29,984 nucleotides of DNA from Thermoleophilia bacterium (GCA_014534295.1 JACVRU010000001.1:1-29984); one strand, 5' to 3'; positions 17,542 to 29,984 are shown, counted from the first letter of the stretch. Notes: generated by a model from the letters alone, not told the origin. Numbers and translations are program-made.

Positions 17542-17728
17542 GCGATCGGGCCGCGCCTCGTGATGCGGCCTGGGCCTCGGTACGGGACGATCCACTAATA
17601 GGAGTCTCGCGAGCGTCCCCTTAGTGGCGCAGCCTCAGCCCCACGACGACTTGCGGGGCCGTATCCGCGCCTCAGGACCCATCGTTGTGCGATGGAGACC
17701 ACTTTCAACGAACGAGGGGGTCCCAAAT

Positions 17729-18538
17729 ATGCGATTGCTCCGATTTCTGAGGTACGTCGTGCCGGCGACCGTCATCGCGGCAGCTGCCGCGTCGCTTCTT
17801 GCAGCCGGGGCTGCTGCGGACTCGATCGCAGCGTGCCCGAACCCGACGGCGACCGGCACGGCAGGCAACAACACGATCGTCGGGGGGCCCGGCGCCGATC
17901 GGATCAACGGGCTCGCCGGGGACGACTCGCTCTACGGACTGGACGGGGTCGACTGCCTCGCCGGGGGCGACGGCATGGACGACCTCTACGGCGGATCAGG
18001 CACGGACTCGCTCTACGGGGGAGCGAACGACGATGACCTGAACGGGGGCATCGGCAACGACACGGTCTATGGCGACGCCGGAGTCGACTTCATCAGCGGA
18101 GGCCTCGGCAATGACTCGCTGTACGGAGGCGATGACATCGACGAGATCTACGGCGGCACCGGCGACGACCAGATCTTCGGCGAGGCCGGCCCCGACCTGC
18201 TCAACGGCGGCACCGGCCGCGACCGGATCAACGGCGGCGCGGAGAACGACGTGATCAACGGCGACTCCGACGACGACATTCTCTTCGGTGCCGCGGGCAA
18301 CGACCTGATGTCGGGCGGCCCCGGCCGAGATCGCGTGAACGGCGGCGCCGGCGCAGACACCCTGATCGGCGGCCCCGACGTCGACATCATCGTCGGCGGC
18401 GGCGGCAACGACCTGATCATTGCCGTGGACAATGAGCGCGGCGACCGGGTCGGCTGCGGCGCGGGCCGGGACAAGGCGGTCGTGGACTTCGGCGACTTCG
18501 TCTCGTTCTGCGAGGTCGTTCACCGCGTCCGGCGCTGA
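17729..18538 (+). CDS. Secreted hemolysin-type Ca-binding repeat (beta-roll) protein
   Basis: Sec-type signal, 21 contiguous GGxGxDxLx-type nonapeptides, C-terminal DRVGCGAGRD...CE cap. Confidence 0.92.
   Translation: MRLLRFLRYVVPATVIAAAAASLLAAGAAADSIAACPNPTATGTAGNNTIVGGPGADRINGLAGDDSLYGLDGVDCLAGGDGMDDLYGGSGTDSLYGGANDDDLNGGIGNDTVYGDAGVDFISGGLGNDSLYGGDDIDEIYGGTGDDQIFGEAGPDLLNGGTGRDRINGGAENDVINGDSDDDILFGAAGNDLMSGGPGRDRVNGGAGADTLIGGPDVDIIVGGGGNDLIIAVDNERGDRVGCGAGRDKAVVDFGDFVSFCEVVHRVRR
17855..18421 (+). repeat. 21 x 27-bp degenerate coding tandem repeat
   Basis: Counted from GTAGNNTIV to GGGGNDLII (21 x 27 = 567 bp). Confidence 0.9.
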
Positions 18539-20485: not shown

Positions 20486-20500
20486 CGCAATCTCGACCCG

Positions 20501-20683
20501 CTACGGCTCCGAGTCGAGTCTCGCGAGTGCGGTTTCCCAGTAGTCGATCGCGAGGCCGATCGCCTCCGCGGCCTGGACTTCGCCTGCTTTCAGCAGCGCG
20601 CTCCGCTCGAGGAGCAGCGTGGCGATGATCTCTCGGATCTCGGGCGAAGACGGGGACTCCGGGCGCCTTTGCGGTGCTGCCAC
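20501..20683 (-). CDS. Possible small helical protein (start uncertain)
   Basis: EIREIIATLLLERSALLKAGEVQAAEAIGLAIDYWETALARLDSEP* has coding-like third positions. No good SD at GTG 20683. Confidence 0.4.
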   Translation of the reverse strand: MAAPQRRPESPSSPEIREIIATLLLERSALLKAGEVQAAEAIGLAIDYWETALARLDSEP

Positions 20684-20824
20684 GCTCCCAGCGTTGGTCG
20701 AGCGCCGTCGCCATGCGCTCCCAGTAGGTCTAGTCCCAACCTGTACGGGCGGCTCGCGGCAACATCTGCAGCGGTGCTCGTCCCCCCACGCGCGCGCCAA
20801 CGCGGTCGCGGCCGGGGCGCTCGC

Positions 20825-21249
20825 ATGCGCGGAAGCGTCGTGAGGTTCGCCGCGTGGGCGCGAGACCGGCTCGCCGCCGCTGCGTCCACTGACCGAGCGC
20901 CTGCTCGCCGCCCTGCCCGCGGCGGCCTGGATCGCGCTCTGGGCGCTCGTGCCCCCGGCGAACGCCGCGGCGAAGCTGCGGCCACCTGCAGCAGCTCAAG
21001 GCCGCCGAGCTGGAGCTCGCGCGCGACCTGTACGCGCAGAGGTACGAGCCGGTGCGGACCCCCGAACGCTGGGCGCCCTCCGAGCGGCAGCGCGGCCTCC
21101 TCGGCGCGACCGACTCGCTCCCGAAGCGTGCGCGCGGGCTGCACGACTGGCCGATCGACGAAGGCACCTTCGCGCGCGTACTGATGATCGTCACCAGCGT
21201 CGTCGCGACGGCCATCGGCCGGCTGATCCTCGACCCGCTCGGCCTCTAG
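20825..21249 (+). pseudogene. Internally deleted, frameshifted membrane-protein gene
   Basis: Fragments LTERLLAALPAAAWIALWALVPPANAA / HLQQLKAAELELARDLYAQRYEPVR...HDWPIDEGTFARVLMIVTSVVATAIGRLILDPLGL* lie in different frames. The stop overlaps the convergent gene stop (CTAG). Confidence 0.6.
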
Positions 21250-22424
21250 CGCGGCGCCGACCGAAGCAGGAGCTCCCGGAGGGCGTCCGGGTCGCCGACC
21301 AGACGGGCGACCTCGTCGAGCGACTCGTCGACGGCGCGCGCGAGCGCTTCCGCGCCGCCGAAGCGGTCGAGCGTCTCAGGCGGCACGAACTTGAGCAGCA
21401 GCGCGGCGGTTCCCGGAGGCACCGCGGCGAAGTGGACGGTGAGGACGCCGTGGTCTCGGAGGAGCACCATCGCGAGGGCCGCCGTGGCCTCGATCGGGAC
21501 GAGCGCCGCCTCGCCCAGCCCGGCGCGGCGCAGCGCCTCTGCCAGGATCCGCTCGCCCTCGAGCCGCACCGCGACGGGCGTCCGCGTCACCCAGCCGCCG
21601 AGCCGCGCTTCGAGCGCCTCGCCGACGGCGGCCGTCGCCGCGACCAGCTCGCGCACGCGCTCGGGCCGGTATTGCTCCAGCGAGCGGACGACGGCCGGGT
21701 AGAGCATCGGCCTCGCCTCGAGGCCGAGCTCGATCGCCCGGGCCCTGATCTCGGCCACAAGCTCGGCGCGGCCCGCGAGCAGGCCGAGCCGCGGCCCGGT
21801 CGTCCCGTACTTGTCAAGGGCCGTCACCGCGGCCTCGACGGCGAGTTCGAGCGCCCGCGGCTGGCCGAAGACGACCGGCCCGACCCGGGCGCCGCCCGCG
21901 TCGTCGAGGAAGACCGGCGCGCCGAAGTCGCGCGTAAGCTCGTCCTCGGGCAACAGCTCGTAGGTGACCGCGAGCCGCGTCAGCAGCACGAGGTCGGCTC
22001 CGGCGGGATCGCCGCCGTCCTCGAGCTCGCCGCCAGCGCGCCGCACGGCTCGTACTCCGGCCGGGTGCGTGTAGCTCGGCGAGACGCCGACGACGCGCGA
22101 CCCCGGCGAGACGAGGACCTGCATGGCGGCGACGAGCGCGGCCGTCGTCCGGTTCGCGACGAAGACGTCGTCGCGCCCCGCGGAGCCGCCGAGGTGGTCG
22201 AGCGCCAGCTCGGTCAGCCGCTCGCCGTACAGCGCGGGCGACAGCTCGTCGTCGAGGACGTCCTCTGCGCCCACCCGGAGCGAGCGGACGAGCCCGGTGA
22301 AGTCGAAAACGCCGCCGTCCCGCGAGCGCCGACCGAGGATCCCCCAGGCCGCCCGCAGCTTCGCGAAGTCGGCGCCGGTGCCGGTCAGCACGGCGCCGCG
22401 CTCGTAGGGCAGCCACTCAGACAA
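21246..22424 (-). CDS. Fold-type I PLP-dependent enzyme, SelA-like, resembling the MJ0158/UPF0425 family
   Basis: NRTTAAL, YTHPAG, FLDDAGGAR (PLP Asp), ALDKYGTTGPRLGLLAGR (Schiff-base Lys at 21812-21810), LGLEARP. The TTG start overlaps the permease stop. Confidence 0.75.
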   Translation of the reverse strand: MSEWLPYERGAVLTGTGADFAKLRAAWGILGRRSRDGGVFDFTGLVRSLRVGAEDVLDDELSPALYGERLTELALDHLGGSAGRDDVFVANRTTAALVAAMQVLVSPGSRVVGVSPSYTHPAGVRAVRRAGGELEDGGDPAGADLVLLTRLAVTYELLPEDELTRDFGAPVFLDDAGGARVGPVVFGQPRALELAVEAAVTALDKYGTTGPRLGLLAGRAELVAEIRARAIELGLEARPMLYPAVVRSLEQYRPERVRELVAATAAVGEALEARLGGWVTRTPVAVRLEGERILAEALRRAGLGEAALVPIEATAALAMVLLRDHGVLTVHFAAVPPGTAALLLKFVPPETLDRFGGAEALARAVDESLDEVARLVGDPDALRELLLRSAPR

Positions 22425-23094
22425 GGCGTCTCTCGAGGTACGCGGCCAGCCGGGTGAGCGGGAAGCAGATCAGGAAGAACACGAGCATGACGCCCGCGTA
22501 GATGGGGAACTCGCCGCGGTCGCCGAAGCCGGCGGGCTCGGGAGCGTTGACGACCTCGACCATCCGCTCGGCCGCCTCGAGCAGCTCGGCGCCGCCGATG
22601 ATGCCGATGAGCGTCGTATTGAGCACGATCCCGATCAGCAGGCTCACGAGCGGCGGCAGCAGGCGGCGGGCGGCCTGCGGGAGGATCACCGAGACGTGCC
22701 GGCCGACCCAGCCGAAGCCGAGCGCCGAGGCTGCCTCGTGCTGCGCGCGGGAGATCGACTGCACGGCGCCGCGGGTCGCCTCGGCGATCTGCGCGCTGCC
22801 CCAGAGGGTCAGCGTGACCGTCCCTGCCGTGAAGGGGTCCATCTCGAAGCGGAGCGAGATCGCCGGGGCGCCGAAGTAGACGATGAAGAGCGTGACGATG
22901 ATCGGCAGCCCGCGCCAGACCTCGATGTAGAGCCGGATCAGCGCACGCGACGGCGCGAAGCGGATCGTCAGCAGCGTGCCCAGCGTCACGCCGATCGCGG
23001 TGCTCAGGGCGAGCGACACCGCTGCGATCCGCAGCGTTCCGACAAGGCCTTGCTCCAGCAGGTAACGCGCAACCGGCTCCGCCCACTCGGGCAT
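22417..23094 (-). CDS. Polar amino-acid ABC permease (HisQ/GlnP family)
   Basis: YIEVWRGLP, AEATRGAVQSI, EAA loop EAASALG, ILPQA. Confidence 0.93.
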   Translation of the reverse strand: MPEWAEPVARYLLEQGLVGTLRIAAVSLALSTAIGVTLGTLLTIRFAPSRALIRLYIEVWRGLPIIVTLFIVYFGAPAISLRFEMDPFTAGTVTLTLWGSAQIAEATRGAVQSISRAQHEAASALGFGWVGRHVSVILPQAARRLLPPLVSLLIGIVLNTTLIGIIGGAELLEAAERMVEVVNAPEPAGFGDRGEFPIYAGVMLVFFLICFPLTRLAAYLERRLV

Positions 23095-23096
23095 CG

Positions 23097-23777
23097 CTAT
23101 GCCGCCTCCGGCAGCGCGAGGCGGGACTCGAGCAGGCGGATCAGGGCGGAGAGCGTCCAGACGAGCGTCAGGTAGACGAGTCCGAGCACCGTCCAGGCCT
23201 CGAGCGTCTCAAGTGTCAGCGCCTGGATCTGGAAGGCCGTCGTCGTCAGCTCTTCGTAGGCGATCACGTAGAGCAACGCCGTGTTCTTGAAGACGGCGAT
23301 GTAGGTGTTGATCGACGACGGCAGCGCGATGCGGCCGCCGATCGGCAGGGTCACGCTCAGGAAGGTTCGGAACCGGGTGAACCCGAGCGCCAGCCCAGCC
23401 TCCCGGAACCCGTACGGGACGGCCTCGAAGCCGGCTCGGAAGTTCTCGGTGTTGAACGCCCCGCCCCAGACCATCACAGAGAGCCACGCGATCGTGAACA
23501 CGTCCAACCGCGTCGACTCGAACTGCCCGAGCCCGAAGTAGAGGAAGAAGATCTGGACGAGGATCGGGGTGTTGCGGATCAGCTCGACGTAAGCCGCGGC
23601 CACCTGGCCCAGGATCGGGATCCGGTGGGCGCGGGCGGCGCCGAAGACAATCCCGATCACGAGCGCGCCGAAGATGGCGATCGCCGAGACCTTCACGGTG
23701 CGGCCGAGCCCGCGCAGAAGGGGCTCCCAGTTCTCGCTGACGAACCCGAAAAGGTCGTAGGTGGCGGCGACGATCAC
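23097..23777 (-). CDS. Polar amino-acid ABC permease (HisM/GlnP family)
   Basis: YVELIRNTPILVQ, TENFRAG, EAGLALG, KNTALL. Confidence 0.93.
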   Translation of the reverse strand: MIVAATYDLFGFVSENWEPLLRGLGRTVKVSAIAIFGALVIGIVFGAARAHRIPILGQVAAAYVELIRNTPILVQIFFLYFGLGQFESTRLDVFTIAWLSVMVWGGAFNTENFRAGFEAVPYGFREAGLALGFTRFRTFLSVTLPIGGRIALPSSINTYIAVFKNTALLYVIAYEELTTTAFQIQALTLETLEAWTVLGLVYLTLVWTLSALIRLLESRLALPEAA

Positions 23778-23787
23778 CGGTCAGGGG

Positions 23788-23817
23788 CGGGAGCGGCCGC
23801 GTCGGCGGCCGCTCCCG
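23788..23817 (-). other. Intra-operon hairpin directly downstream of the substrate-binding protein gene
   Basis: CGGGAGCGGCCGC-GTCG-GCGGCCGCTCCCG is a perfect 13-bp stem with no U-tract. Confidence 0.8.
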
Positions 23818-23838
23818 TGCTCCTCGGCTGCCCTCGGC

Positions 23839-24762
23839 CTACGGGCAGACCGTTTCCGCAGGAGGCTCGCTGGCCGGCGCGTACCCGAACGTGTTGTTCG
23901 GCCGAAGGATGTTCTTCGCAAACGCGGCCACGAAGCGCGGCGGGACGGTGTTCTGCAGGATCGGGTAGAACCGGTCGGCCTTCCGCATCAGCTCAAGCCT
24001 CGAGTTGACCCATCGCTGCATCGCTCTGTACCCCTGCCTCATCCCGATCCCGTACGGGAGGGGGAGGAAGAGGTCGTTCGTGAGCTTCAGGTCGCGGTTC
24101 GTGGCAGCGATCCCGACGAGGACGGTGTCGTCCCACATGAGCGTGTCCGCCCGGCCCTGCTCGAACGTGAGCCGCGCGTTCGTCAGGTTGTCCTGCACGA
24201 TCAGGTTCGTGCTCGTGAAGCACTTCCTGACCCACGTCTCGTAGATCGAGCCGCTCGTTGTAACGACCGTCTTGCCCGCGAGATCCCGGAGCGAGTTGAT
24301 TCCGGCGTTGTTGCGGACGAGCAGCCGCCCGGTCGCCTTGTAGTACGCGCGCGAGAAGTCGATCCGCGTGTCGCGGGCGCGGGTGTACGTGAAGGTCGAG
24401 ATGACTAGGTCGACTCGTCCGGTCGTAATCAGCGGTTCGCGGGCGGGCGTGGGCGCGCAGACGAAGCTGACGCGGCTTGCCCGGCCAAACGCGTAGCGCG
24501 CGAACCAGCGGGCGATCTCGACGTCGAAGCCCTGGTGCTTGCCGCGGACGTCGATGTAGCCGAACGGCGGCGCGTCGCACTTGACCCCGATGATCCAGCG
24601 CTTGCGGTTCTTGACCGCCGTCGGCAGCGGCGGCAGCGTGGCGGCCTCCGCCTGCGGGGCAGTCGCGTGCGCCGGTCCGACCGCAGGCGCCGAGAGCGCC
24701 CAGGCTGCGAACGTCGCCGAGACGGCCGCCGCGAGGGCGACCGCCAGTGTGAGTCGCTTCAT
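23839..24762 (-). CDS. Polar amino-acid ABC substrate-binding protein (SBP_bac_3, Glu/Asp-like)
   Basis: AGGAGGAG SD, ATGA overlap with the ATPase stop, signal peptide, [36 protein letters not shown]. Confidence 0.92.
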
Positions 24763-25574
24763 TCGTCTCCTCCTTGGTGTTGTTCCTCGGCCAACTCCTC
24801 GAGGGAGTGGGCGAGCTGCAGCGTCCGCCTGAGGAACGTCTTCGTCTCCTCGTGCTGCGGACGGTCGAGCACTTGCACCGGCACGCCCTCCTCGACGATC
24901 CGGCCCTGGTCCATGAACACGACGCGGTCGCCCACCTCGCGGGCGAACTGCATCTCGTGGGTGACGACGATCATCGTCATCCCGTCGCGGGCGAGATCGC
25001 GCATGACGACGAGCACCTCGCCGACGAGCTCCGGGTCGAGCGCCGACGTGACCTCGTCGAAGAGCATCACGTGCGGCTCCATCATCAGGGCCCGGGCGAT
25101 CGCGACGCGCTGCTGCTGGCCGCCCGAGAGCTGGTGGGGATGCTGGTCCGCCTTCTCCGCCAGCCCGACACGGTCGAGCAGCTCGCGTGCCCGGTGCTCG
25201 GCCTGGTCGCGGGAGAGCTTCTTGATCCGCCGCGCGGCGAGCGTCAGGTTGTCGATCGCCTTCAGGTGCGGGAAGAGGTTGAACTGCTGGAAGACGATCC
25301 CCACGCGCTGGCGGACGGCCGACACGTCGACGCCCTTGCGCGTGATCTCGTTCCCCTCCAGGAAGATCCGGCCGCTGTCGATCGGCTCGAGCAGGTTGAT
25401 GCAGCGCAGGAGCGTGCTCTTCCCGCTGCCGCTGCGCCCGATGACGACGAGGACCTCGCCCGCGGCCACGTCGAGGTCGATCCCGTCCAGGACCAGGTTC
25501 GAGCCAAAGCTCTTGCGGAGCTCCACGCAACGCACGATCGGCCCTCCGCTCGCCTGGACTGCTGCTGACGTCAC
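24759..25574 (-). CDS. Polar amino-acid ABC ATP-binding protein (GlnQ family)
   Basis: [44 protein letters not shown]. Confidence 0.96.
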
Positions 25575-25623
25575 TCCGCCCTCCGGCCCACGAATGAGCC
25601 TCGATCAAAGTGAGTCGACGGGC

Positions 25624-25639
25624 CCAAGTCAAGACCAGT
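25624..25639. promoter_or_regulatory. GntR/HutC-type (dre-like) operator candidate overlapping a minus-strand TTGACT
   Basis: CCAAGTCAAGACCAGT matches 12/16 of ACTGGTCTAGACCAGT with a perfect right half. TTGACT on the minus strand at 25632-25627. Confidence 0.35.
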
Positions 25640-25726
25640 TTTTCCGGGCCGCGCCCAGCGGTTCTCCCAGCAGGCAAGCCGTCGTAGTGCGATATTTCCC
25701 GGACGCGAGCGGCGAAAGGGGGCAAC

Positions 25727-26848
25727 ATGCGAAGCACGCTGATCCGGCAGCTCGCCATCGCCCTGATCGGAGTCGTGTTCGTCGCGTCCGGGTGCAACCT
25801 CGGCGGAGACGACGACGACGACGGGGGCGAGGCGGGCGGCGAGACGCAGACGCAGACGCAGCCCGGCCAGACTGGCGGAGACCTGCTCCAGACGGTCACG
25901 AGCCGCGGCAGGCTGATCTGCGGCGTCAACGACGCCGTGCCGGGCTTCGGGTTCGTCACCGAGGGCGGCGACTTCGAGGGGTTCGACATCGACTACTGCC
26001 GCGCCGTGGCGGCGGGGATCCTCGGCGATCCCGAAGCGGTCGACTTCAGGCCGCTGACGGCCGAGCAGCGGTTCACCGCGCTCCAGGCGGGCGAGGTGGA
26101 CGTCCTGATCCGCAACACGACCTGGACGTCGAGCCGCGACGGCTCGGAGGGGGCCCGCTTCCTGACAACGACGTTCTACGACGGTCAGGGGATGATGGTG
26201 CAGGCGGACTCGGAGTTCCAGGAGCTCGAGGATCTGGACGGCGCGACCATCTGCGTCCTCTCGGGCACGACCACCGAGCTCAACCTCGCAGCGCAGTTCG
26301 AGGCCCGGAACCTCGACTTCGAGCCCCTGTCCTTCGAGGACAACGATCCCCTGCAGCAGGCCTTCCAGCAGGGCCGCTGCGAGGCGTGGTCCTCCGACCT
26401 GTCGCAGCTCGCGGGCATCCGGTCGAACTGGCCTGACGGCGAGGGCGGCCCGGAGGCGCTACGGATCCTCGACGTGACGATGTCGAAGGAGCCCCTCGGG
26501 CCCGTCGTGGCGGACGGCCAGGAGGACTTCGCGGACGCGGTCAACTGGATCGTGATCGCGACGATCCAGGCCGAGGAGTTCGGGATCACGTCGGAGAACA
26601 TCGACGAGCAGCTGAACTCCGAGGACCCGGAGGTCCAGCGCTTCCTCGGCCAGCCGGTCGAGGGCGAGCCGTTCGATCCGGGTCTCAACCTCGACGCCGA
26701 GTTCGCCGCGAACGTCGTCCGGGCGGTGGGCAACTACGGCGAGATCTTCGAGCGGAACGTCGGCCCCGACACGGGGCTCGGCCTCGAGCGCGGACTCAAC
26801 GCGCTCTGGACCGAAGGCGGGCTCCATTACCCGCCGCCGTACCGCTAG
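25727..26848 (+). CDS. aapJ: General L-amino-acid ABC substrate-binding lipoprotein (AapJ/BztA family)
   Basis: Lipobox ASGC, RGRLICGVN, GFDIDYCRAVAAG, RNTTWTSSRD, FYDGQG, SKEPLGP, VGNYGEIFERN, GLNALW...PPYR. Confidence 0.93.
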   Translation: MRSTLIRQLAIALIGVVFVASGCNLGGDDDDDGGEAGGETQTQTQPGQTGGDLLQTVTSRGRLICGVNDAVPGFGFVTEGGDFEGFDIDYCRAVAAGILGDPEAVDFRPLTAEQRFTALQAGEVDVLIRNTTWTSSRDGSEGARFLTTTFYDGQGMMVQADSEFQELEDLDGATICVLSGTTTELNLAAQFEARNLDFEPLSFEDNDPLQQAFQQGRCEAWSSDLSQLAGIRSNWPDGEGGPEALRILDVTMSKEPLGPVVADGQEDFADAVNWIVIATIQAEEFGITSENIDEQLNSEDPEVQRFLGQPVEGEPFDPGLNLDAEFAANVVRAVGNYGEIFERNVGPDTGLGLERGLNALWTEGGLHYPPPYR

Positions 26849-26855
26849 CCGAGCC

Positions 26856-26884
26856 GACGGGGGCGCCTTCGCGGCGCCCCCGTC
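26856..26884 (+). other. Intra-operon hairpin directly downstream of the substrate-binding protein gene
   Basis: GACGGGGGCGCC-TTCGC-GGCGCCCCCGTC is a perfect 12-bp stem. Confidence 0.8.
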
Positions 26885-26893
26885 CTTCACCCG

Positions 26894-28036
26894 GTGAGCC
26901 GTCCGGCACCCTGGCGCGACGTCCGCGTCCTGCGGATCGCCTTCCAGGCGGCCTTCCTCGTCGCCGTCGTCGCATTCGTGCTCTGGATCGTGGACAACAC
27001 GGTCGGCAACCTGGAGCGCAGGGGCATACGCACGAGCTTCGACTTCCTCGACCAGCCGGCCGGCTTCCGCATCCCCGGCTCGGACTTCCGCACGTCGCAG
27101 AGCATCGGCGACGCGATCCTCGTCGGCGTCGAGACGACGATGAAGGTCTCGGCGATCGGCATCGTGCTCGCCTTCCTGCTCGGCGTCTTCGTGGGAGTCG
27201 CCCGGCTGAGCCCCAACTGGCTCGTGCGCCGGGCGGCCGCGCTCTACGTCGAGTCGCTGCGGAACGTCCCGGTGCTCGCGATCATCTTCTTCTGGTACCT
27301 GGCCGTGATTCTGAGGCTGCCCACCGTCGAGGTGGCCGGGCTCTTCGTCTTCTCGAACCGGGCCTTCGCCGTTCCGGACCTGACGCTCGAGGACGGGATC
27401 GAGCTGTTCGGGATCGCCGCCCTCGTCGGCCTGGTCGCGGCCGCGGTCGTCTGGCGCTGGCGCACGCGCCGGTTCGACGCGACCGGCGAGCCGCACCACC
27501 GTGTCCTCTGGGGCGCGGGGCTGCTCGCCGCCGTTCTCACCGTCGGCTTCTTCGCGGCCGGTCGTCCGATCGGGCTCGACACGCCGGAGCGCCTGCGGTT
27601 CGGCTTCGCCGGCGGGCTGCGGATGAGTCCCGAGTTCGCGGGCCTTCTGATCGCGCTCGTCCTCTATACGGCGAGCCACATCGCGGAGGTCGTGCGCGGC
27701 AGCATCCTAGCCGTCCAGAAGGGGCAGGGCGAAGCCGCGGACGCGCTCGGCCTCTCGCCGTTCCAGCGGCTGCGCTTCGTCGTCCTCCCGCAGGCGTTCC
27801 GAATCATGATCCCCCCGCTCGCCAACCACTTCCTCAATCTCGTGAAGAACTCGTCGCTCGGGGTCGCGATCGCCCTGCCCGAGGTGACGCGCGTCGTGCG
27901 GATCGCGATCTCGCAGCGCGCTCCGGCGCCCCAGTCGATCGTGATGCTGATGGGCATCTATCTCGTCTTCTCCCTGTCGATCGCGCTCGTCACGAACCTC
28001 GTCAACCGGCGGCTGCAGCTGAAGGGGCGGACGTGA
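26894..28036 (+). CDS. aapQ: General L-amino-acid ABC permease (AapQ/BztB family)
   Basis: SFDFLDQPAGF, RLSPNWL, YVESLRNVP, IAEVVRGSI, GQGEAADALGL, KNSSL. Confidence 0.92.
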   Translation: MSRPAPWRDVRVLRIAFQAAFLVAVVAFVLWIVDNTVGNLERRGIRTSFDFLDQPAGFRIPGSDFRTSQSIGDAILVGVETTMKVSAIGIVLAFLLGVFVGVARLSPNWLVRRAAALYVESLRNVPVLAIIFFWYLAVILRLPTVEVAGLFVFSNRAFAVPDLTLEDGIELFGIAALVGLVAAAVVWRWRTRRFDATGEPHHRVLWGAGLLAAVLTVGFFAAGRPIGLDTPERLRFGFAGGLRMSPEFAGLLIALVLYTASHIAEVVRGSILAVQKGQGEAADALGLSPFQRLRFVVLPQAFRIMIPPLANHFLNLVKNSSLGVAIALPEVTRVVRIAISQRAPAPQSIVMLMGIYLVFSLSIALVTNLVNRRLQLKGRT

Positions 28037-29289
28037 GCACCTCGCCTCTCCAGGAGCCGATCCCCGTCCCGGAGGAGGGGCAGCCGATCACGCAGCTCGG
28101 CCCCCGCGAGTGGGCCCGGCAGAACCTCTTCCGCACGTGGTTCGACACGGCCCTCACGGTCGTCTTCTCCCTCATCCTCGCCTGGGCGCTCTACCGCGCG
28201 GGCCGGTTCGTCTTCTTCACCGGCCGCTGGGAGATCATCGACCGGAACCTCACCAACCTGCTCGTCTTCCGCTTCCCCCGTGACGAACTCTGGCGAGTCT
28301 GGACCGGGCTGTTCGTGCTCGCCGGCACCTTCGGCGTGGCTGCGGGCTCGGCGGCGCGGACGCGCGACCAGGCCGTGGCGGAGGGGCGGGTCGCCCCGCC
28401 GGAGGAACGGCTGGTGCTGCGCCGGTTCGGACCCGTCCTGCTGCTCGTGGCGGTGCTCCTCTACTTCGCGGGCACGCTCTCGGCCTTCCTCCTGACGGCG
28501 GGCGTCGCGGTGGTCGCCGTCGCCGCCCGCTTCGCGGGCTACCGCGTGCCGCCGAACCGCGCCGGCTGGGGATTCGCAGTCGGCATCCTCGGACTCGTCG
28601 CCGCCTTCACCGTGATCCTCGGCTTCGGAGGCGTGGGCTGGGACCGCTGGGGCGGCCTGATGCTGACGATCTTCCTGGCGGTGGGCGGAATCACGATCTC
28701 GTTCCCGATCGGGGTCCTGCTCGCGCTCGGCCGACGCTCGACGTTCCCGGCGGTACGGGTGGTGTGCGTGGGCTACATCGAGCTCATCCGCGGCGTGCCC
28801 CTGATCACGGTGCTCTTCATGGGCGCGTTCATGCTGGGCTTCTTCCTGCCGCCGGGCACGGAGACGCCGAGCCTGGAGACTCGGGCGCTCGTCGCGCTCG
28901 TCGTCTTCACCTCCGCCTACGTTGCCGAGATCGTCCGCGGGGGGCTCCAGTCCGTCCCGCGCGGGCAGATCGAGGCCGCCTACGCGGTCGGCCTCTCCCC
29001 GCTCCGCACGACCGCTCTGATCGTGCTGCCGCAGGCCCTGCGCGCGGTGATCCCGGCCATGGTCGGCCAGTTCATCACGCTGTTCAAGGATACGTCCCTG
29101 GTCGCGATCATCGGGCTCACGGAGCTACTCGGCGTGTCGAGCATCGTCACGAGCCAGCCCGACTTCCTCGGACAGGGCCTCATCTTCGAGACGCTCGTCT
29201 TCGCCGCCTTCGTGTACTGGGTGGGGTCATACTCGATGTCCAGGGAGAGCCAGCGCCTCGAGCGCCGACTGGGGGTGGGGCAGCGATGA
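28033..29289 (+). CDS. aapM: General L-amino-acid ABC permease (AapM/BztC family)
   Basis: W...NLF..WF start, [52 protein letters not shown]. Confidence 0.92.
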
Positions 29290-29984
29290 GCACCGAGCAG
29301 TTGCGATCGGCAGCCACGGAGCCCGGAACGGGAGCGCCGATCATCGTCTGCGAGGGAGTGGAGAAGTGGTTCGACTCGTTCCAGGCCCTGAGCGGGGTCG
29401 ACCTCGTCGTCGGACGCCAGGAGGTGGTGGTCGTCTGCGGCCCGTCCGGGTCGGGGAAGTCCACGCTCATCCGGTGCATCAACCGGCTGGAGAAGCACGA
29501 CCGCGGCCGGATCGTCGTTGACGGGATCGAGCTCACCGACGACGTGCGGAACATCCAGGAGATCCGGCGGGAGGTCGGGATGGTGTTCCAGCAGTTCAAC
29601 CTCTTCCCGCACTTGACCGTCCTCGACAACATCACGCTCGCCCCGCGCCAGGTGCGCCGCTGGTCGAAGGCGCGCGCGCGGAAGACGGCGATCGAGCTGC
29701 TGGAACGCGTCCGGATCCCGGAGCAGGCGCACAAGTACCCCGGCCAGCTCTCGGGCGGGCAGCAGCAGCGGGCGGCAATCGCCCGCGCCCTCGCGATGGC
29801 GCCGAAGATCATGCTCTTCGACGAGCCCACGTCGGCGCTCGACCCGGAGATGATCAAGGAGGTGCTCGACGTCATGTTCGAGCTGGCCGCGCAGGGCATG
29901 ACCATGATCGTCGTCACCCACGAGATGGGCTTCGCCAGGGGCGTGGCCGACCTCATGGTGTTCATGGACCGCGGCGAGATCGTC
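29286..29984 (+). CDS. aapP: General L-amino-acid ABC ATP-binding protein (AapP/BztD family), truncated by the window end
   Basis: ATGA overlap, [48 protein letters not shown], open to base 29984. Confidence 0.95.

Follow-up and report, generated by a model that had tools for sequence, protein, structure and literature searches.

What does an uncharacterised enzyme that depends on pyridoxal 5′-phosphate (PLP) do at the end of an operon for an amino-acid importer? We consider this question for a stretch of 29,984 nt with ~72% G+C from a Thermoleophilia bacterium (GCA_014534295.1 JACVRU010000001.1:1-29984), referred to here as the window, which comes from a metagenome-assembled genome (MAG) that is 56.7% complete. 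The host is a soil actinobacterium of the Gaiellaceae, and the nearest relatives of the stretch are Gaiellaceae MAGs in the class Thermoleophilia. Five co-directional genes on its minus strand, running from 25574 to 21246, encode the ATPase, the substrate-binding protein (SBP) and two permeases of an ATP-binding cassette (ABC) transporter, followed by a fold-type-I PLP enzyme. We put at about one half the probability that the importer encoded here takes up an alpha-amino acid or some close derivative of one, and that the co-translated enzyme removes or transfers the amino group to leave a carbonyl product.

According to this reading the five genes would form one transcription unit, and the importer, of the polar-amino-acid (HEQRo/PAAT) family, would take up the amino acid or derivative. 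The PLP enzyme, in the cytoplasm, would then turn the imported compound or its immediate product into a carbonyl compound, with the amino group released or transferred. It would be an accessory enzyme that extends the use of what is imported, most Gaiellaceae that carry the transporter operon doing so without it. The layout of the operon, the placement of the enzyme in its family, the recurring linkage and the uneven distribution are shown, and we infer both the catabolic role and the chemistry; the reading is favoured because the genes lie tightly joined on a single strand, because their order is kept in 17 loci, and because linkages to the same transporter family are found independently in Rokubacteria and in rhizobia. 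It is favoured also because importers of other kinds (SBP_bac_5, SBP_bac_1 ABC and NhaC-type) directly precede relatives of the enzyme.

The operon and its importer

The first gene encodes the ATP-binding subunit (24759-25574, minus strand; 271 aa; PF00005, E 6e-37) and starts at a GTG that is preceded by a Shine-Dalgarno-like GGAGGG. Its stop codon overlaps the ATG of the next gene by 4 nt (ATGA), and that gene, with the strong Shine-Dalgarno site AAGGAGGA ahead of its start, encodes the secreted SBP (23839-24762, minus; 307 aa; SBP_bac_3, PF00497, E 7e-23). After a gap of 61 nt comes permease 1 (23097-23777, minus; 226 aa; PF00528, E 3e-16) and, only 2 nt further on, permease 2 (22417-23094, minus; 225 aa; PF00528, E 2e-17). 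Both match TIGR01726 HEQRo_perm_3TM, with 85.4 and 73.8 bits respectively against a cut-off of 42.2. The last gene encodes the PLP enzyme (21246-22424, minus; 392 aa), and its TTG start overlaps the stop of permease 2 by 8 nt; the encoded N-terminus is conserved in orthologues from residue 1-5. The PLP gene is translationally coupled to the importer. A preliminary description of this DNA had given the same five-gene order, strand and coordinates, and these stand, as do the close junctions it had noted, the 61-nt gap being the widest.

The presumed site of the operon promoter is the 152-nt divergent intergenic region at 25575-25726 (no strand assigned), by its position only: scans of 20500-26000 for sigma-70 consensus promoters and intrinsic terminators found none, and an Rfam scan of the operon found no riboswitch or leader element. 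On the other side of this region, a second and larger polar-amino-acid ABC operon runs divergently on the plus strand (25727-29984), with an Aap-like layout comprising an SBP of 373 aa, long permeases of 380 and 418 aa, and a GlnQ-like ATPase gene that runs off the window.

With an SBP_bac_3 protein, two permeases that carry an N-terminal HEQRo 3-TM domain and a GlnQ/HisP-type ATPase, the importer has the composition of a PAAT system, the type that handles His, Glu, Gln, Arg and opines. When its subunits were scanned against NCBIfam, no ligand-specific model of equivalog level reached its cut-off. The best match of the ATPase is GlnQ at 314 bits, under the equivalog cut-off of 379, with TcyN and EhuA at ~297, and the SBP scores are scattered over models for Lys/Arg/Orn, Asp/Glu, cystine and Gln binders, all far under their cut-offs. 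The nearest solved SBP structures bind Glu (PDB ID: 5EYF), cysteine or cystine, Arg, and Asp/Glu, with E-values from 1e-30 to 1e-19 at ~30% identity. Aligned with 5EYF, the SBP retains an Arg (TYTRAR) and an Asp (WDD) in the columns that anchor the alpha-carboxylate and the alpha-ammonium group in SBPs of this class. Since both anchors are kept, the ligand is likely to be an alpha-amino acid. The narrower "Glu/Asp-type" ligand class proposed previously could not be established, as the scores spread over several amino-acid binder models and the identities are only ~30%.

Family, fold and active site of the PLP enzyme

The placement of the enzyme near MJ0158 and SelA in the preliminary description was upheld. 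UPF0425/MJ0158 (TIGR03576; PDB IDs: 2AEU, 2AEV), a group of orphan PLP proteins from class I methanogens, provides the best match in sequence and in fold by a wide margin. The enzyme matches TIGR03576 (pyridox_MJ0158) with 142.5 bits (E 1.7e-41), and at E<=0.01 the only other NCBIfam match is one of 22 bits to GntC; a Pfam scan at the same threshold gave none. By sequence, its sole significant solved relative is MJ0158 (2AEU, E 5e-23). An AlphaFold model built from a 57-sequence alignment (pLDDT 95.6, pTM 0.92) found MJ0158 first in Foldseek (2AEU, E 1.4e-21), with generic fold-type-I enzymes trailing by nine orders of magnitude, and an exhaustive VIA-align search gave Z 30 to 2AEV. The next folds in that search, alpha-oxoamine synthases, serine hydroxymethyltransferase (SHMT) and threonine aldolase, follow at Z 22-25 with 12-16% identity. 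The top five matches among Swiss-Prot models are five UPF0425 proteins of methanogens, and the ESM Atlas neighbours fall in UPF0425-like and YhfS-like clusters, none of known function. An exhaustive HMMER search of 1.84 billion representatives (E<=0.001) returned only 375 clusters at 50% identity, so the superfamily is small. A word-index search (5.8-billion-sequence index) found ~2,000 close homologues, mostly from soil metagenomes, and most of these carry the label "L-seryl-tRNA(Ser) seleniumtransferase".

That label raises the question of whether the enzyme is a selenium- or tRNA-linked enzyme of the SelA type, as JGI and NCBI protein names such as "L-seryl-tRNA(Ser) seleniumtransferase" and "selenocysteine synthase" would have it. 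The two do share a fold clan and a lysine segment of similar shape (DK..GP..G in SelA; PF03841, TIGR00474), and among AlphaFold DB fold clusters the enzyme lands in one labelled SelA (E 1.8e-24). The genome also encodes a genuine SelD, on another contig (C42:20434-21351, equivalent to L085 8435-9352; 341 bits; PDB ID: 3U0O, E 3e-60), where its gene adjoins a heme-A-synthase-like gene. Against this, the enzyme has no Pfam match at E<=0.01 and no TIGR00474 match, and its PDB match to SelA has an E-value of only 0.09 and covers ~100 residues (163-266), so identity with true SelA was rejected. At 392 aa against 463 aa for the aligned SelA chain, it is without the N-terminal tRNA-binding extension. 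No SelA or SelB match lies within the window, and the 56.7%-complete MAG, the PLP gene included, gave no TIGR00474 match and no SelB above cut-off. The only tRNA in the window is tRNA-Arg(CCT), in agreement with the earlier remark that tRNA-Sec is missing from it. Of five other genomes with an orthologue, only three have a SelD that scores above cut-off. To our knowledge, MJ0158 itself is regarded as not being a selenocysteine synthase. The protein is mentioned in PMC2275076. We therefore consider a selenium- or tRNA-linked function very improbable, and the enzyme is best described as a SelA-clan, MJ0158-like protein of fold type I with no assigned function.

Features common to the superfamily argue for a working PLP enzyme. 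The hallmarks R92 (in NRT), H120 (in (S/T)HP), D174-D175-A176, K205 and G210-P211-R212 are shared by all its branches, and the conservation of K205, D174, H120, R92 and the GPR212 loop supports a live enzyme. The predicted Schiff-base lysine in the DK motif, Lys205 (codon 21810-21812, minus), is present in 100% of the orthogroup of the window enzyme and 98% of the outgroup, and its counterparts in the alignment are the lysine of TSTDK in MJ0158 and that of SGDK in SelA. The segment DDAGGAR (residues 174-180; 21885-21905, minus) contains D174, the predicted partner of the pyridine nitrogen, which is invariant in 57 sequences. All of the motifs quoted originally are in place: NRT at 91-93, DDAGGAR, DKYGTTGPRLGLLAGR at 204-219 and GLEA at 234-237. 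Common to the archaeal proteins and the window enzyme are NRT, (S/T)HP, DDA.GAR, DK..GPR.G and a GLEA-type helix, and in both the function is unassigned.

The two groups differ in several respects: the window enzyme is bacterial, ~20-50 residues longer, falls in a separate starred clade, and is encoded in a transporter operon, where the archaeal context is different. In a maximum-likelihood tree of 73 orthologues and 11 outgroup sequences, the orthogroup forms a single clade (SH-aLRT 100) separate from the archaeal proteins, that is, an uncharacterised bacterial sister clade of UPF0425/MJ0158. Its three sub-clades track taxonomy (Rokubacteria/Methylomirabilota; Actinomycetota; Pseudomonadota with Nitrospirota). 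The active site differs as well. Archaeal UPF0425 proteins keep two arginines (…RLR… and …IRID/LRLD) that the window enzyme lacks. At position 182, an Arg found in 96% of the outgroup is replaced by Gly in the orthogroup, and the conserved C-terminal Arg of the superfamily is Leu or Ile in the orthogroup (Leu343 in the window enzyme, codon 21396-21398, minus; LRLK becomes LLLKF). By analogy, we take the latter to be the usual alpha-carboxylate binder of fold-type-I enzymes. Position 177 is Gly in 99% of the orthogroup, while the commonest outgroup residue there is Tyr (43%). R150, Y118, Y155, Y206 and H331, which count as gained, and likewise F332 and T264 show a conservation of at least 94% within the orthogroup and are rare in other sequences. 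Of these, Arg150 (codon 21975-21977, minus) stands beside the conserved Thr149 and is found in 100% of the orthogroup compared to 4% of the outgroup. It presumably adjoins the strand-end residue that faces O3′ of the cofactor, as judged from other fold-type-I enzymes, and it may serve as a replacement carboxylate binder.

As read from the alignment, these replacements appear to mark a change in specificity, and the altered pocket speaks against classing the protein with TIGR03576 proper. Membership in that family, which the first description had implied, was not confirmed: the score is under half of the cut-off of 304.45 and the two arginines conserved in the superfamily are gone. A bacterial relative, P0151 (199 bits), and a Nitrososphaeria paralogue (210 bits) also score below this cut-off. 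If anything, loss of the two arginines would argue for a substrate less acidic than in the sister clades, whose genomic contexts (gamma-glutamyltransferase, CapA-like, D-glutamate-cyclase-like and Asp/Glu-racemase-like genes) hint at acidic or D-amino acids. A bolder proposal, to which we give little weight, is that the orthogroup may have a specificity, for substrate or reaction, that is new to the SelA/UPF0425 clan, having dropped the carboxylate-binding arginines and rebuilt the pocket (R150, Y118, Y155, Y206, H331) for a non-standard imported amino acid, for instance one that is D-configured, beta-hydroxylated or sulfonated.

Genomic contexts of the enzyme and the importer

We compared 80 orthologue loci, taken from contigs at one genome per species, by searching them with the four transporter proteins of the window and by clustering and annotating the neighbouring genes. 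A polar-amino-acid ABC system lies beside the enzyme in 24 of the 80, and a different transporter is nearby in another 12. The order ATPase-SBP-permease-permease-PLP enzyme is kept in 17 Thermoleophilia loci, with SBPs 43-88% identical to that of the window, and these loci correspond to one starred clade of the enzyme tree. Seven further loci, from Rokubacteria/Methylomirabilota, have the arrangement accC-accB-PLP-ATPase-SBP-permeases, with 27-111 nt between PLP and ATPase genes and SBPs only 24-31% identical to the window SBP; here the enzyme has been joined to this transporter family independently. In five Rokubacteria loci (L042, L045, L050, L060 and L077), the genes upstream of the PLP gene on the same strand encode a biotin carboxylase (AccC-like, 511 aa) and a biotin carboxyl carrier protein.

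A third case is found in a sister clade from Agrobacterium, Sinorhizobium and Rhizobium, annotated "selenocysteine synthase" and in some copies carried on plasmids. Its operon (L093-L095, 2420-11351) comprises, past a LysR gene, genes for a HIBADH-like protein, an aldehyde dehydrogenase (ALDH) distinct from methylmalonate-semialdehyde dehydrogenase (MMSDH), a GLUCM-like protein (PF14336), the PLP enzyme, a second GLUCM-like protein, an SBP_bac_3 protein, two permeases and an ATPase, and on each side the PLP gene shares 4 nt with the adjoining GLUCM-like gene. Genes for an IS240-family transposase and an HGLS-family protein follow this operon. A literature search on DUF4392 and D-glutamate cyclase found only the mammalian enzyme. 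As polar-amino-acid ABC systems have joined the enzyme three separate times, in Thermoleophilia, Rokubacteria and the Rhizobiaceae sister clade, we regard the recurrent importer linkage as real. A lack of recurrent linkage to amino-acid transporters among homologues had been named beforehand as grounds for refuting the original idea, and such linkage was observed in the 17 Thermoleophilia loci, the 7 Rokubacteria loci and the rhizobial clade.

Importers of other families adjoin more distant relatives, at 32-45% identity. In one, an SBP_bac_5 gene precedes the PLP gene at a distance of 14 nt (an SBP_bac_5 importer also occurs at L046), and in another an SBP_bac_1 gene and a fused permease gene precede it. 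A further relative sits in a cluster of SBP_bac_1 ABC, AFOR, ALDH, RidA and PLP genes, with RidA 13 nt upstream of the PLP gene. At L089 (611-6452), a tight operon with gaps of 3-20 nt contains four genes, for an NhaC-type carrier, a UPF0425-like PLP enzyme, a gamma-glutamyltransferase and a CapA/PGA_cap-like protein, which suggests processing of a gamma-glutamyl compound. In a Nitrososphaeria MAG (L086 4785-14800, and L087), P0141 and a 427-aa protein (TIGR03576, 210 bits) are UPF0425-like paralogues encoded convergently, in the company of RidA (<=300 nt downstream), an Amdase/Asp-Glu-racemase-like gene, a DAO-family oxidase, a fold-type-II PLP enzyme and a class-V aminotransferase. The presence of RidA beside relatives fits the release of an enamine or imine.

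The remaining contexts within the orthogroup are mixed. Five loci have a TRAP transporter and a glyoxylate-reductase-like dehydrogenase divergent from the PLP gene and a CitE/malyl-CoA-lyase-like gene; three have a convergent Liv-type ABC system with a HIBADH-like gene; four have LysR, a flavin monooxygenase, the PLP enzyme and a PrpB-like lyase; and three have a YbdK-type carboxylate-amine ligase. In a Pseudonocardiaceae MAG (L059, 3142-9230), the orthologue shares one strand with genes for a CuyA-like D-cysteate sulfo-lyase (477 bits, above cut-off), LysR, an NhaC-type carrier and a SolA-like amine oxidase. Other neighbours include CoA-transferases (CoA-transferase III), a hydantoinase/oxoprolinase, an amidase, a Cys/Met-family PLP enzyme, a ThrC-like enzyme and an APC permease. 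Several common themes were considered for these genes and none was sustained: the glutathione/gamma-glutamyl theme (gshB, YbdK-type ligase, gamma-glutamyltransferase, oxoprolinase-like), the glyoxylate/malyl-CoA theme (glyoxylate-reductase-like, CitE-like, PrpB-like) and the malonate/methylmalonate semialdehyde theme (MMSDH, HIBADH-like) are each confined to one or a few clades, and the cysteate theme to a single locus with a CuyA-like gene.

How closely the importer is tied to the enzyme was examined in Gaiellaceae sampled at one genome per genus (n=40). An orthologous SBP (47-75% identity) is present in 11 genomes, and all four genes of the ABC operon are present in the five regions examined, at 46-83% identity. 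The PLP gene follows the ABC operon in only two of the 40 (G179 and G156), and 9 of the 11 carriers have no PLP orthologue. The G179 gene is intact, an apparent internal TAG being simply its stop codon. That of G156 is split into three reading frames by two frameshifts (L103 4983-6147, equivalent to G156:C23; also L079), and is either a decaying gene or an error of hybrid assembly. Two further Gaiellaceae genomes have a PLP copy of the Rokubacteria type, 50-54% identical, away from the orthologous ABC system. Across the class, the enzyme was found in 2 of 150 genomes. The 3′ end of the ABC operon faces convergent genes for a class-III aminotransferase of the PRK06062 type and a CoA-acylating MMSDH (733 bits), both scoring above cut-off, in four loci that have the PLP gene and two that lack it (L097 338-4660, L098 2801-5701, L006, L010, L057 and L071).

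The enzyme, patchy in its distribution, is thus an accessory added at the 3′ end of a more widespread importer operon and not one half of an obligate pair. The transporter cannot be called dedicated, as the preliminary description had it, because 11 of 40 genera have the ABC system, only two of them with the enzyme adjacent, because two other genera have a PLP gene without this ABC system, and because 56 of the 80 orthologues are found elsewhere. These Gaiellaceae distributions weigh against uptake and catabolism by a matched importer and enzyme, as do several other observations. The 56 loci are without a polar-amino-acid ABC system, and ~44 are without any identified transporter. In 11 Rhodospirillales loci the PLP gene lies among gshB, arfB and comM, with only a divergent LysR gene. 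The aminotransferase and MMSDH could be the real partners of the transporter. The ligand is known for no orthologous SBP; searches of the literature on MJ0158, UPF0425 and "SelA-like" found no functional study and no biochemical data for UPF0425-like proteins; and the nearest structural neighbours of the enzyme after MJ0158 are the three groups named above, not lyases.

Much of this would be expected if the job of the enzyme had nothing to do with the transporter ligand, that is, if the gene were mobile and encoded an accessory PLP enzyme whose substrate stays the same (for example in the metabolism of semialdehydes and glyoxylate, of sulfur or sulfonate amino acids, or of D-amino acids), and if it had come to rest many times over at the ends of operons that are convenient and expressed. 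The nine Gaiellaceae ABC operons without the enzyme, the 56 orthologues in other settings and the mixed company described above, from the YbdK-type ligase and gshB to CoA-transferase III and the CuyA-like cluster, are all consistent with this, as is the fact that the enzyme tree tracks phylum boundaries while the neighbourhoods change. However, the stop/start overlap, and the same junction kept through a clade at the level of a class, argue for co-expression and for selection on the pairing. The two other independent joinings to the same transporter family, in Rokubacteria and the Rhizobiaceae sister clade, and the same-strand importers of four further families that abut relatives also speak against a passenger. 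We judge an unconnected function, the main rival, to be doubtful, if worth serious consideration, and prefer import coupled to removal or transfer of the amino group. The pairing of ABC system and enzyme is real and recurrent, and is a lead to the substrate of the enzyme rather than its identification.

Chemistry and significance

Estimates of the chemistry are conditional on the enzyme acting on the imported compound, and together exhaust the options. An alpha,beta-elimination or deaminating lyase reaction, by analogy with SelA and DgaE, comes first at somewhat below even odds, since these two, the only characterised members of the clan, use aminoacrylate-type intermediates and since RidA abuts two relatives; beta-elimination is a reasonable guess, and the aminoacrylate chemistry of SelA is the basis for it. 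Transamination is a tentative second. Aldol-type C-C cleavage or racemisation is less probable again, and is kept alive by the structural nearness to glycine-handling enzymes and by the DAO and racemase neighbours. A small remainder is left for other reactions. The cofactor-stacking His of (S/T)HP and the strand end DDA-x-G are shared with glycine-handling enzymes, a resemblance that we take to hold at the level of motifs. The His of their DDAHG is Gly in the window enzyme, and the arginine of PxGxxRLR is Leu in the orthogroup.

A stricter alternative is that the enzyme is specifically an aminotransferase and not a lyase, with a 2-oxo acid accepting the amino group that the imported amino acid gives up, as happens with many fold-type-I enzymes linked to transporters. 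Fold and source annotations group it with aminotransferase folds of classes I/II and V, and the aldehyde dehydrogenases and HIBADH-like reductases that recur near relatives would be expected for a semialdehyde or oxo-acid product. The outgroup often has DDAY at 174-177 (43%), which resembles the D-x-A-Y of aspartate aminotransferase. However, the orthogroup has Gly in place of that Tyr and is without the canonical C-terminal carboxylate-binding Arg, and the RidA genes next to two relatives are better explained by elimination. Those members of the clan that have been characterised, SelA and DgaE (PMC9529869 for DgaE), are enzymes of elimination or replacement. A specific aminotransferase is consequently unlikely, and the broader reading, in which the amino group is either released or transferred, is the one we retain.

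Importer operons that end in a catabolic PLP enzyme are an ordinary design. A textbook parallel is the tcyJ-dcyD-tcyL-tcyN cluster of E. coli, where the gene for a D-cysteine desulfhydrase (DcyD) lies among those for a cystine ABC importer: a PLP-dependent deaminating lyase is co-transcribed with a polar-amino-acid importer and degrades its ligand. The architecture is similar, and the second- and third-best matches of the window subunits include cystine-transporter models, far under cut-off; DcyD is a fold-type-II enzyme of the 1-aminocyclopropane-1-carboxylate deaminase family, unrelated to the window enzyme. A closer parallel in fold is DgaE, a SelA-clan PLP enzyme that carries out a deaminating beta-elimination and is encoded with the uptake system of its substrate (PMC9529869). 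Membership of the DgaE group was rejected: neither the NCBIfam scan (E<=0.01) nor the PDB search (E<=1; no DGL chain among the matches) matched the enzyme to a DgaE model or structure, and its neighbours are ABC subunits. The DgaE neighbourhood contains a mannose-family phosphotransferase system and 2-keto-3-deoxy-6-phosphogluconate (KDPG) aldolase, in contrast to the ABC amino-acid importer of the window, which has no partner of the KDPG-aldolase type. SelA differs in other ways, with no significant sequence match to the window enzyme, an N-terminal tRNA-binding domain that the latter lacks, and a selB/tRNA-Sec partnership, for which no SelB above cut-off turned up in the 56.7%-complete MAG and no tRNA-Sec in the window. 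As for the enzyme, it represents a variant of an orphan family that is mis-annotated and uncharacterised, and its pocket is clearly altered.

Elsewhere in the window, a 324-aa protein encoded at 17564-18535 (plus strand) has RTX-type calcium-binding repeats (serralysin/hemolysin repeat models, E 4e-32), and no catalytic domain was detected in it.

UPF0425/MJ0158-like proteins have had a crystal structure since 2005 and are still without a function, and public databases widely mislabel their bacterial relatives as selenocysteine synthase. The bacterial branch is found again and again with solute importers, and often with aldehyde dehydrogenases, HIBADH-like reductases, RidA and genes connected with D-amino acids, which points to catabolism of imported nitrogen compounds and not to tRNA or selenium chemistry. 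As the transporter is not dedicated to the enzyme, the ligand of the SBP alone will not settle the substrate, and the lead is useful but weaker than first supposed. The orthogroup has tractable carriers in the cultured Nonomuraea wenchangensis (CGMCC 4.5598) and Bailinhaonella thermotolerans (YIM 75507), as the sister clade does in Agrobacterium and Sinorhizobium (S. fredii among them). Should the remodelled pocket of the orthogroup prove to serve a new specificity, solving it would for the first time give biochemistry a foothold in the orphan superfamily as a whole, to which the MJ0158 proteins of methanogens and the rhizobial proteins mis-annotated as "selenocysteine synthase" also belong.

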